60,038 nucleotides of DNA from assembly GCF_003991155.1 (NCBI RefSeq), contig NZ_CP031296.1; one strand, written 5' to 3'. Origin of the DNA: Escherichia coli. Its GTDB lineage: Bacteria; Pseudomonadota; Gammaproteobacteria; Enterobacterales; Enterobacteriaceae. The position numbers were made by a program. Positions within the stretch are counted from its first letter, which is position 1; each line of letters opens with the position of its first letter. This document shows positions 51,001 through 54,000 of this stretch, piece after piece.

Positions 51001-54000
51001 GGAGCAAGCTGAAGAACCAACCCATAGCGATTACTCCTGTTGTGTGTCTTTAATTGTGATTACGCATTGTGAAATATTCCTGAATGCGTATAACGGTTTA
51101 TCTGCTGAAAGATAAAGCATCAGCGTATCTTTTAATGCAGATTCAAAGTTTCCCCGGAAAATAAGAGGAGCATCTATTCTGTAGTTCACAGGAGTATCCC
51201 ATACAAGATTCCAGGTTGAATTACCACACGGTGAACTTGACGCCCATTCGGTGAGGCCATCCCGCAGCGTCGAACCTTTTTTAAGATTCCAGGTGAGTTT
51301 TTCTGTCTGTTTTTGCGGAACGGTGACAGGCGTTAGCGGTTTTTGAGGTAACTTGTCAGAGGAAACTGGTGTCCTGACAGGAGATGCAGGGGTTTTGTCA
51401 GGAGATACAGGTGCTTTTTGTGATGTTTTCCCTTTCTGTTGTTGAAAATCAATCAGAAGATGTCTTTTTTCGGTGTTCTTAATTACCGTCAGACCGTAGT
51501 TGCGAAGCATTTTATCCAGGACATAAGGCCATTGATCGTTGCCCTGCCAGGATATCGTGCGACGGAAAGTTTTCGTTACCTCCGGGGATATTTCAGCCGT
51601 CCAGTCCGATGGGACAATTTCTTTTAATGCTTTTTGCAGCGAGCCTTTACCATCATGGCGAACAAAGTAAATTTGCTTTTCAGGTGTTGATGGGCCTGTA
51701 AGCGTGGTGGCCGGAACAGCGTTGTTAGCGTTTTTTTTCAGAAAACCGCTTTTTGACATTAGCGGTGGTTGTTCAGGACGCGGTTTTGTCTGCTGATCAG
51801 TCTTTTGTGCCGTTTGTGCCTGATGGTTGTTGCTACTGATTGGCTTTGCGGGAGAGAGTGCTGGTTGTTCAGAATGCTGTTTAGTTGCTCCTTTGGCTGC
51901 TGTTTTTATCTCACCAGATGAAGTTATGCTGTTTGTTGTCGGCTTCAGAAAACTATTATTGCTGCCCTGGTTTTTTGGCGCTGTCGCTGATTGCTCAGAA
52001 CGTGGTTTTACGGTTTCTGCAATACGAGGCGCGGGAGTTACGTTTATGGCTTCCTTTTTGAGATAATTATCATTGCTGTATTGAACAGTGCTGTTTGGCT
52101 GTGACACGGGCTGCTGAAGGGCCACCCCGTTATAGTATGTGTCTGCTCTTACCTGCTCAATTGTGGTATTCAGTTCATACCAACCTCCTTTTGCCTGTGC
52201 GGGTTCAGGGGCATGGGAACACGCATTCAGCAATAATGTGGTGGGAATAATAATGAGCTTTTTCATGGTTAACCCCAGGAACGTCCGAACTTACTCATGA
52301 TTTTTGAGATCGCCGCAGGGTCTGCGGTCGTGCATTGATTAAGAAACGCTTTTCGGGCATCAAAGGTTTTGCTCCAGCGAATAGATCCCTTTTTCTTTTT
52401 GATGATATTAAAGAAGTCCTTTTCGGCGCTTTTGCATTCGCTCCCGCCGCCGCTACCGATAGCTTTACCGTACAGACAAAGAACGGAAGCACACGGATCA
52501 GACGCATATACGGGGGCAGTGAGTGCGATAGCACTTGCGGCAACCATCGATAAAATGATGGATTTCATGGTGTTCCTCCATATTTCAGGCAAAAGAAAAC
52601 CCGCACGAGGCGGGTATGAATGAGCCATTAAAGGCGGAATTGCACTCTTTGTTTAGTTTTGATATCTATCCTGTTGCATCATCAGAACAGAATACTGGAG
52701 TTAAGTTGGTTATGGCGCGGTTTTATTTAAATGTACCTTTTGAAGAAAAGGAGTTAGCCAAACAAAAAGGGGCGCAATGGGATCAAGAACAACGGAAATG
52801 GTTTGTTCCACAGGGGAAAAATCCAATTTATTTTATTCAGTGGGTAAAAGAATTAAACGAACATGATTACAATATTTTTTCTCAACGTTTTTATATTGCG
52901 GAAAGTTACCAGTCATGTTGGCGCTGTAAGAAAATAACTCCTGTGTTTGGTGTTTTTTTGCCTCGTTGGTTTAGTTATAGAGATGTTGTTTGTGGGGTTA
53001 AACCTGCTGAATGGGAAGGTCGCATATTAGATAAATGGTATGAAACATCTTCTCCACGAGGTATGGTATATTTTGATTCAAAGAAAAATATAATTTATCA
53101 GTGGTTAACCAATCCAAAAGCATGGGCTATTTTATCCAACGTAAGAAGGATATCATCTTCTGCGTTATCAATAATCAATAAGCATTCTAAGTTATATTAT
53201 CCCGCCTATAGTAAAACAGCGAAAATGACCTACTACGCGAATCATTGTTGTCATTGTAAATCAATGCAGGGAGACTTTATGATGTTTGATGAGCCAGGTG
53301 GTGTGTTTTATCCAGTCACATCTGAACAGGCGAAGAAAATAAAACTCCATGAAGTAATAAATGAAACAATTTTTGCTAATGCAAACCACAGGCAAGCCAT
53401 AGAGTAATGCTTGGTAGTGGAGGTTTTATAAATCTTTACGCAAGATAAAACCCGCATGAGGCGGGTATTCTTTTAAATAGAATCACCTTGCTATAGGGAA
53501 GGTGATTCTATTGTAAACGTTCCATTAGATCCCGCACTGTCTTCTTGTACTCTTCTTTTTGTGCGTTGTTCTAATGCAGCACGAACATTAGAACTATTTA
53601 TCAACTGGTCACTGCGTACAGCCAAAAAAAGCCCGCTTTGCGAGCTGTTTTTAATGAAGGATTATTGCATCATATTTTTAAATGCTTTACCCGATTGCTC
53701 TTTTTGAATGGCTTCACGCGCATTTTCGCAGTTTTGACCAGACATATCCCCTTTGCTGCATTTTTCGACAACATCTTGGGCTTGTTCAAGATGTTCAGCG
53801 TAGTAACTGACATCATAAACTTTGTCTTCACAAGCAGCTAAAAGGAAGCATGACAAGATAGTTAAAGTGCTTATGAATTTTTTCATTCGAACACCTATTG
53901 CATCATTAATTTAAACTTTTCTCGACTAACAGCCTCTTGTCTTGCATTTTCAGACGCGATTAGCTGTCTCTCTGCAATATCATATTGCTTCAATTGTAGC

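Follow-up and report, generated by a model that had tools for sequence, protein, structure and literature searches.

An optional ygiA module between repeated terminator-like hairpins in the kikA-eexN interval of an mcr-1-carrying IncI2 plasmid

The window analysed here, a stretch of 60,038 nucleotides from Escherichia coli (contig NZ_CP031296.1), is an mcr-1-carrying IncI2 plasmid, with mcr-1 at ~18792-20417, and the gene considered in this report is ygiA, an optional accessory gene on the plus strand in the hypervariable kikA(trbM)-eexN interval, inside a minus-strand operon for a T4SS (type IV secretion system) and pilus. The E. coli plasmid pIPCEC42_2 (typed IncI2, MOBP and MPF_T), whose record features mcr-1, a shufflon, pil genes and a VirB-type T4SS, is 100% identical over the 2-kb region compared, and this region is matched in 516 PLSDB records, nearly all of them typed as conjugative IncI2 plasmids. 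It had been suggested in an earlier note on this DNA that a gene at 52616-53407 interrupts a run of minus-strand transfer genes; this is correct for the longest open reading frame (ORF), which encodes 263 aa and is the sole plus-strand gene among the T4SS and pilus genes, its minus-strand neighbours being tcpQ/pilL, trbM/kikA, eexN, and virB5-like and virB6-like genes. The order in the IncI2 plasmid TP114 is virB6(traA), virB5(trbJ), TP114-005 (unknown), ygiA, yggB, kikA(trbM) and pilL (Neil et al. 2020, PMC7508951, Supplementary Data 1). There, ygiA is TP114-006, labelled 'DNA primase' and 'soft-core' among IncI2 plasmids, and high-density transposon mutagenesis of TP114 scored it '-' for maintenance and for both in vitro and in situ (mouse gut) conjugation (PMC7508951). 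Thus, ygiA is already a named gene with a negative transfer phenotype. The features on which the argument depends, including the left and right hairpins (HP1 and HP2), are the following, where RBS stands for ribosome-binding site and CDS for coding sequence.

52269..52568, minus strand: kikA/trbM (TrbM/KikA/MpfK family), from the annotation of the identical pIPCEC42_2, a weak NCBIfam TrbM match and the kikA name in TP114
52538..52617, minus strand: 78-80-nt repeat unit, single copy in the window, made up of first ~11 codons, RBS, U-tract and hairpin
52599..52615, minus strand: HP1, ACCCGC-CUCGU-GCGGGU then UUUUCUUUUG, from the terminator scan and fold energy
52616..52711, plus strand: probable leader/promoter of 96 nt, annotated as codons 1-32, from homologue starts and substitution pattern
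52712..53407, plus strand: ygiA, probable true CDS of 231 aa, from homologue starts, substitution pattern and the AlphaFold 2 (AF2) model
53450..53466, both strands: HP2, bidirectional and terminator-like, from the scan and folding, and homologous to HP1 including the U-tract region (34-nt repeat, 53435-53468)
53662..53886, minus strand: eexN (entry-exclusion lipoprotein), type A allele, from the annotation and NCBIfam Eex_IncN (E = 6.7e-19, over the family cutoff)

The two near-identical hairpins that the earlier note placed around the plus-strand gene are real and not due to chance, with coordinates that differ from those given there by 2 nt (left) and 1 nt (right). Direct reading of the sequence locates the 22-mer AAAACCCGCA(C/T)GAGGCGGGTAT at 52596-52617, where it reads AAAACCCGCACGAGGCGGGTAT, and at 53447-53468, where it reads AAAACCCGCATGAGGCGGGTAT; the stem-loops proper, at 52599-52615 and 53450-53466, each consist of a 6-bp stem with 5 GC pairs and a 5-nt loop. 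The 18-mer core AACCCGCAYGAGGCGGGT has exactly 2 copies in the 60-kb window, even at up to 3 mismatches, while shuffled sequences lead one to expect 0.02. Beyond the core, the two copies can be aligned as a direct repeat of 34 nt (85% identity; 52584-52617 and 53435-53468), and the additional similarity falls on the A-rich side, that is, on the U-tract of the minus-strand terminator. Each hairpin folds more stably than its shuffled counterparts (z -2.6 to -3.7), and both display the sequence hallmarks of Rho-independent terminators, namely a GC-rich stem (5 bp or longer) closed by a short loop, and a U-rich tract immediately 3' of the stem. Such tracts occur on the minus strand after HP1 (UUUUCUUUUG) and after HP2 (UUUUAUCUUG), and on the plus strand after HP2 only (AUUCUUUU), none following HP1 on that strand; in line with this, a consensus scan finds HP1 terminator-like on the minus strand only and HP2 on both. 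The two hairpins are therefore copies of one predicted Rho-independent terminator, and the suggestion that bidirectional terminators insulate the gene holds, by prediction, for the right hairpin, the left one being terminator-like on the minus strand alone.

This prediction has a published counterpart. According to PMC11878559, the stbDE operon of the plasmid pHNSHP45 ends in a canonical, 'strong Rho-independent' terminator composed of a GC hairpin and a U-tract (n = 8), and the hairpin that follows stbE in two of the relatives compared below (L001 and L003) is identical to HP1, reading ACCCGCCUCGUGCGGGU then UUUUCUUUU; from this position we infer that the published stbDE terminator and HP1 are the same hairpin. 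In the same plasmid, a hairpin just before the hicB RBS was shown by experiment to lower downstream mRNA ~10-fold without abolishing it (PMC11878559). The latter result provides a precedent for leaky internal terminators and supports the notion that the hairpins at kikA, yggB and ygiA are partly leaky.

A comparison of module junctions, based on 12 IncI2 loci (numbered with the prefix L) and on BLAST summaries, revealed a hairpin copy at every module junction of the kikA(trbM)-eexN interval in all 12, with almost all variation confined to the loop. L001 (pMCR-M19736) has three hairpins, one between stbE and kikA, one before yggB and one after ygiA, whereas L003 and L005, which are without ygiA, have two; the pattern of one hairpin per junction is also found in L004-L009. 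The modules themselves come and go: yggB is present and stbDE absent in L007, L008, L009 and L020, both are absent from the window, L002, L004 and L006, and ygiA is absent from L003, L005 and L018, in which one hairpin lies between yggB and a tandem eexN pair. IncI2 plasmids thus vary in four ways, namely in the presence of stbDE, the presence of yggB, the presence or allele of ygiA, and the eex type.

The left junction of the window can be traced to a particular event. Most of the closely related plasmids are 100% identical to the window over two separate pieces, kikA and ygiA being 1,325 bases further apart in them, a configuration seen in 16 relatives, and in L001 these 1,325 bp encode a RelE/ParE toxin with its antitoxin (stbDE) and a 211-aa lipoprotein (yggB). 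They are flanked in L001 by a 78-nt direct repeat (2040-2116 and 3360-3441) that comprises the hairpin with its U-tract, an RBS (GGAGG) and the ~11 initial codons (MKSIILSMVAA) that kikA and yggB have in common; the corresponding query segment (positions 114-191) recurs upstream of kikA in every BLAST record. The window has a single unit, in which the left flank is that of the kikA copy and the right flank that of the yggB copy, so that its form is explained by a deletion of 1,325 bp (stbDE and yggB) between the 78-nt repeats. Judged by its sequence, the left junction is the recombinant joint of this repeat-mediated deletion.

Presence or absence of ygiA was followed in the same way. An empty-junction query (yggB, hairpin and eexN288) is fully covered in one piece in 158 of the 516 records, and a YgiA-type protein at no less than 60% identity is encoded in 343, which indicates that about two-thirds of IncI2 plasmids carry ygiA, these proportions of junction types being approximate, as BLAST joins pieces across the 702-bp yggB insert and the 227- and 211-record sets overlap. 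The presence/absence comparison proposed earlier thus yielded empty-site variants and not uniform conservation of the gene with its hairpins.

The present data bear directly on the suggestion of a cassette-like insertion, of which one part stands and another does not: ygiA is an optional module, about a third of IncI2 plasmids having an empty site with a single hairpin, but the repeats were not generated by insertion and are not specific to a cassette, for they occur at every junction, also where the gene is missing. The stronger version of this idea, in which ygiA would be a mobile cassette moved by site-specific recombination or transposition (integron-like, homing or resembling a miniature inverted-repeat transposable element, MITE) with the hairpins as attachment site or target duplication, draws on the alternation of ygiA between otherwise similar plasmids, with two hairpins at the occupied site and one at the empty site. 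We consider it very improbable. The hairpin also bounds yggB and stbDE, occurs in plasmids without ygiA and is already there in the empty site; the two states have different sequence on the right-hand side of the hairpin; neither an integron integrase nor a transposase lies nearby; and 10 homologous genes elsewhere are without flanking direct repeats. More specifically, an integron cassette was rejected because the 17-nt perfect hairpin has no attC core and there is no IntI, and a transposon or MITE with target-site duplication because the empty site already has the hairpin, the hairpin bounds other modules and a transposase is lacking. The only tyrosine recombinase is Rci, and its involvement, or that of the shufflon, was likewise discarded, the sfx repeats being unrelated in sequence and their cores confined to 29.4-31.0 kb (six exact cores lie at 29382-31033 of the window).

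Further information comes from the points at which similarity to relatives begins and ends. In BLAST comparisons with relatives, similarity ends on the final base of a hairpin, at window positions 52615 (query 616) and 53466 (query 1467) and at L003 5940. With respect to L006, identity is 99-100% in the flanks, 95% in the 5' part of ygiA, 79% in its 3' part, 91% over HP2 and 100% to the right of HP2, while L004 and L019 are 99.4-100% identical through ygiA and 96.9% over HP2, followed by 72% for eexN, 86% for virB5 and 68% for virB6. Two alleles of ygiA, of 263 and 269 aa and ~80% identical, occur in combination with three eex types, and the state without ygiA was encountered only with a fourth. 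We conclude that the hairpins are, on this pattern, likely conserved joints between exchangeable modules. Over 53895-55540, as compared with L004, L019, L003 and L008, the virB5-like gene is 86-99% and the 3' part of the virB6-like gene 68-84% identical, with at least 99% to the left of HP1; this joint divergence of the two genes and eexN suggests co-varying alleles of exclusion specificity.

It is possible, if somewhat unlikely, that the hairpins are terminators only, without a role in recombination, and that module boundaries coincide with them since only recombinants with intact genes survive. Every breakpoint seen does coincide with a gene boundary, and with respect to L006 the left boundary of the divergent ygiA is gradual and lies within the gene, not at HP1 (95% falling to 79%), with synonymous divergence (dS) rising along the gene. 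On the other hand, the deletion in the window lies between 78-nt repeats that contain the hairpin, several independent BLAST comparisons end at the last base of the hairpin, and the 34-nt flank of HP2 is a copy of HP1 including the U-tract, which implies that the element was duplicated along with module changes.

The explanation we prefer is that of an optional ygiA module in a mosaic interval, insulated by terminators that also mark recombination joints, the left one being the product of a repeat-mediated deletion; this structural and evolutionary part we regard as likely. On the minus strand, the hairpins would terminate or attenuate transcription arriving from virB6-virB5-eexN. HP1 would have to be leaky because the kikA RBS (GGAGG, 52575-52579) follows it without room for a promoter, kikA being the first minus-strand gene downstream of the left hairpin. 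HP2 would terminate ygiA on the plus strand, and together the hairpins would insulate the convergent ygiA from the transfer operon. Since divergent or optional neighbours have no conserved sequence between them other than the hairpins, homologous or short-homology recombination would resolve there, and modules could reassort at the hairpins without a dedicated recombinase.

Several considerations weigh against this account. Termination by HP1 and HP2 is a prediction, apart from the published statement on stbDE, and three consecutive minus-strand terminators would starve the T4SS genes downstream unless they were leaky or an unseen promoter were present; the scan detected just one promoter-like site on the minus strand, which is weak and lies inside ygiA. 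In addition, empty and occupied sites differ in what follows on the right of the hairpin, which means that neither state derives in a simple manner from the other, and breakpoints at hairpins could reflect nothing but selection for intact genes at gene boundaries.

As for the gene itself, its real start most likely does not adjoin the left hairpin. The ATG next to HP1 is most likely an artefact of calling the longest ORF, and the true start is probably M33 (52712), 96 nt downstream. Many homologues begin at the residue aligned with M33, as seen in the HMMER hits and the family alignment, and the allele-2 protein in AFDB has 237 aa, which equals 269 minus 32. When the IncI2 alleles are compared, synonymous differences are absent (0) from codons 1-32 and nonsynonymous ones number 2-3, and codons 33-85 have a dS of 0.26-0.37 and a ratio of nonsynonymous to synonymous divergence (dN/dS) of 0.06-0.12; from the pattern in codons 1-32 it follows that the first 96 nt behave like conserved non-coding DNA. 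A possible, weak promoter for ygiA within them consists of TTGCAC (52641-52646) and TATCTA (52664-52669) separated by 17 nt, below the criteria of the scan. For the whole gene, dN/dS is 0.19-0.21 and dS ~0.6 between the two alleles, with dS increasing along the gene, values that indicate a functional gene with old alleles; ygiA is, by these estimates, under purifying selection. Diversifying selection on YgiA was ruled out on the same figures (0.19-0.21 overall, 0.06-0.12 in DUF5710).

The encoded protein combines two parts, located as follows in the numbering of the longest ORF.

52718..52846, plus strand: DUF5710 domain, aa 35-77, from Pfam PF18974 (E = 3.1e-16), with dN/dS 0.06-0.12
52916..52927, plus strand: first CxxC pair, C101/C104, alignment columns C69 (invariant) and C72 (at least 90%)
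53246..53257, plus strand: second CxxC pair, C211/C214, in the motif MNHCxxCxAKQGDF, invariant alignment columns C179 and C182

The N-terminal module had been described as DUF5710-like, and this Pfam match bears the description out, spanning model positions 1-43 of 44. The Cys4 motifs reported at the same time are also genuine, all four cysteines being invariant or nearly so in a 104-sequence family alignment, in which W30, W44, C69, C179 and C182 are invariant and C72 is conserved in at least 90% (M33 numbering). The family consensus can be written as LxVPFxEKDxAKxLGARWDxxxKxWYVP ... CWKC ... DYSKTxxxxYxMNHCxxCxAKQGDFxLxxEPGGxFxP. A HMMER scan of 1.84 billion representative proteins retrieved 2,460 homologues at E <= 1e-3, a number that includes proteins sharing DUF5710 alone, and full-length members mostly have ~200-230 aa; an earlier, word-indexed search had given only 5 proteins. 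The AF2 model is confident, with a predicted local distance difference test (pLDDT) of 91.3 and a predicted template-modelling score (pTM) of 0.85, and consists of a small beta-alpha-beta-beta N-domain and a beta-rich C-domain. Among solved structures no relative was found, the best Foldseek match having E = 0.1 and a profile search of PDB sequences being empty, and the conserved C-terminal Cys4 domain of ~150 aa has no counterpart in Pfam, NCBIfam, PHROG functions or the PDB; PHROGs gave only weak matches, on the DUF5710 part, to families of unknown function. This C-terminal domain, with its CxxC...CxxC site, is putatively zinc-binding. YgiA has no signal peptide.

The company kept by DUF5710 elsewhere offers some guidance as to what the N-terminal part might do. 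In 27 multidomain relatives it is often present in 2-8 copies, with partners that include ArdcN and a zincin MPTase (7 of 27), Toprim (at least 6 of 27, from 6 Toprim_3 and 3 Toprim_4 matches that possibly overlap), a relaxase with TraI_middle (2), LPD7 and RNase_T, and an IncP-like contig encodes a 1,448-aa protein (ArdcN, MPTase, DUF5710, Toprim) beside a YgiA homologue. Iyer et al. have argued that this domain repertoire belongs to proteins carried to the recipient along with the DNA (PMC5512222). The repetition of DUF5710 and its conserved Lys and Trp residues suggest a nucleic-acid-binding module. An equivalence with upf30.5 of IncP-1, prompted by the IncP-like contig, was dropped, as tblastn reaches classical IncP-type plasmids only through the DUF5710 segment of TraC. 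The name 'DNA primase' also deserves comment: many database records would have YgiA be a primase or a fragment of one, with source names including 'DNA primase' and 'TraC', and DUF5710 is indeed common to the TraC primases of IncP type. This identity is, however, scarcely tenable, given that YgiA resembles TraC over nothing more than the DUF5710 module of ~44 aa (16-24% query coverage), that neither a Toprim nor an archaeo-eukaryotic primase (AEP) domain is present (Pfam finds DUF5710 only, and there is no NCBIfam match), and that the protein has just 231-263 aa.

Conjugative plasmids from Proteobacteria, Firmicutes and Campylobacter carry homologues of YgiA in their accessory or conflict regions. 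A Klebsiella homologue lies on the opposite strand inside a T4SS cluster of the type found in integrative and conjugative elements (ICE), those of IncF plasmids are beside antirestriction genes and also in the leading region, and others are located between a Hachiman system and a relaxase/type IV coupling protein (T4CP) operon, next to abortive infection (Abi), restriction-modification (R-M) or toxin-antitoxin (TA) genes, or near insertion sequence (IS) elements. At none of 10 such loci on other plasmids or contigs are the homologues surrounded by flanking direct repeats, and several have ordinary terminators. As for entry exclusion, the homologue of Campylobacter lari pCL2100 adjoins EexN, and in two IncI1-type plasmids a homologue lies ~1 kb from excA-like genes; an association of this kind was absent from the IncF, Klebsiella, Enterococcus, Clostridium, Aeromonas and Xanthomonas contexts. 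The link to entry-exclusion genes (IncI2, C. lari and two IncI1-type plasmids) is thus an unproven lead. In IncI1-type and IncF plasmids, a conserved gene for a 118-aa lipoprotein (lipobox LSGC) without family assignment precedes the YgiA homologue (L011 5618-5974 and L013 5625-5972), and the pair may constitute a two-gene unit. Genes of the DUF6685 family occur next to or near DUF5710 genes in Aeromonas and Xanthomonas plasmids (L026 3263-3958 and L028 5458-6438).

The EexN and excA-like neighbours of homologues in C. lari pCL2100 and two IncI1-type plasmids, together with the position of ygiA inside the tra cluster beside eexN and its conserved Cys4 site, would accord with a role as regulator of the transfer operon or as cytoplasmic partner in entry exclusion, that is, with a zinc-finger DNA-binding protein encoded divergently or convergently within the operon that it controls. 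Such a role appears decidedly unlikely. Insertions in ygiA of TP114 were neutral for conjugation both in vitro and in the mouse gut (PMC7508951), a third of IncI2 plasmids lack the gene and are nevertheless typed as conjugative, YgiA carries no signal peptide, and many homologues are far from T4SS or eex genes (IncF leading region, Abi and R-M neighbours, near IS elements).

With regard to function, we tentatively favour the view that YgiA is an accessory factor in establishment or conflict, one that binds or escorts the DNA being transferred or is active early in the recipient, with the conserved, putatively zinc-binding C-terminal domain as its effector part; taken for itself, this part of the explanation is rather unlikely to be correct. 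A role at the recipient stage would be invisible in matings between isogenic strains, which fits the neutral transposon insertion sequencing (Tn-seq) result. To be set against it are that same neutrality of ygiA for maintenance and transfer in TP114 (PMC7508951), the fact that neither PADLOC nor NCBIfam returned a family for YgiA (0 in each), a C-terminus that is not rich in Arg, unlike that of classical VirB/D4 substrates, and a dN/dS of ~0.2, which bears no signature of an arms race. Taken as a whole, an optional ygiA module between repeated terminators that serve as recombination joints, encoding an accessory establishment or conflict factor, is on balance the best explanation and a moderately probable one. 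A bolder proposal, which we hold to be doubtful, is that the YgiA family is a class of small proteins so far overlooked, whose members attach to the single strand being transferred, travel with it through T4SSs and shield the incoming plasmid or help it to become established, and that the hairpins act as integrase-free joints by which conjugative plasmids shuffle accessory modules and entry-exclusion alleles within an essential operon while leaving that operon intact.

Other features in the neighbourhood complete the description of the locus.

53476..53512, strand not assigned: second, AT-rich hairpin with a 14-bp stem (z -5.2 plus, -4.7 minus)
53520..53600, minus strand: remnant, 3' end of a second eexN (~75 nt, indel), aligning with the 3' end of eexN in L008
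53630..53646, minus strand: unrelated terminator-like hairpin directly after eexN, from the terminator scan and folding

The AT-rich hairpin sits directly after HP2, occurs only in loci with eex type A and is absent from L003, L004 and L008. The remnant is 92% identical to L008 and reads as a decayed second entry-exclusion gene; plasmids without ygiA have a tandem pair of intact eexN genes. With the terminator-like hairpin behind eexN included, minus-strand transcripts would cross three terminators before kikA. The longest trbM/kikA ORF, 52269-52628 (119 aa), crosses HP1 and overlaps the ygiA ORF, while the annotated kikA CDS has 99 aa, starts at 52568 and is preceded by a good RBS, so that the longest ORF overcalls the start here as it does for ygiA. 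An Rfam scan of 51.8-54.2 kb returned only a sub-threshold isrK match (17.5 bits where the gathering score is 50; E = 0.89), which was treated as chance. Elsewhere in the window, hicAB is located at ~9479-10120, the ISApl1 start as found in pIPCEC42_2 has no exact match, and the coordinate offsets between window and pIPCEC42_2 flip sign near the rep region, which means that the two are not collinear everywhere.

In kind, the overall explanation is mostly ordinary: a plasmid hot spot in which terminators and homologous recombination are at work. ygiA has been catalogued before and is not needed for transfer, and the residual novelty is the structurally unprecedented YgiA family. The locus nonetheless matters in that mcr-1 colistin resistance is carried chiefly by IncI2 plasmids, and variation in the kikA-eex interval, which covers exclusion type, toxin-antitoxin and accessory genes, decides whether IncI2 plasmids coexist or displace one another. 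Modules delimited by terminators and subject to repeat-mediated deletion provide a simple rule for reading and typing these plasmids, and two annotation habits can be corrected, namely the name 'DNA primase' and the over-long start codon. A family that is large, conserved and confidently modelled, without structural or functional precedent, is moreover a reasonable target in screens of conjugative plasmids for establishment or anti-defence factors.

Among known systems, the stbDE terminator of pHNSHP45 (PMC11878559) is close to HP1, with which it shares a GC-rich stem and a U-tract, and its copy in L001 and L003 lies directly upstream of kikA; in the window stbDE is gone, so that HP1 now follows the antisense of ygiA. 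The further copies at the yggB, ygiA and eexN junctions are not described in that publication. It also describes an internal hicA terminator before the hicB RBS, which resembles HP1 as a GC-rich hairpin immediately upstream of the RBS of the next gene within an operon but differs in having another sequence and a short U-tract (n = 3); leakiness of HP1 is suggested by this analogy. Proteins that are T4SS-delivered or polyvalent (the TraC1 primase of IncP, ArdC and relaxases; PMC5512222) have DUF5710 in common with YgiA and are likewise encoded on conjugative elements, whereas YgiA is small, has two domains and no recognised enzymatic domain, and can be likened to them by domain co-occurrence only; the Pfam entry DUF5710 (PF18974) covers just its N-terminal 44-aa domain. 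Integron cassettes, finally, are alike in being optional single-gene modules in an array, bounded by structured, partly palindromic repeats. The kikA-eexN interval, by comparison, has no integrase, attC architecture or GTTRRRY core, and its genes are in mixed orientations; its repeat is a predicted terminator, joined at two junctions by an RBS and signal-peptide codons, and exchange apparently proceeds by homologous recombination.

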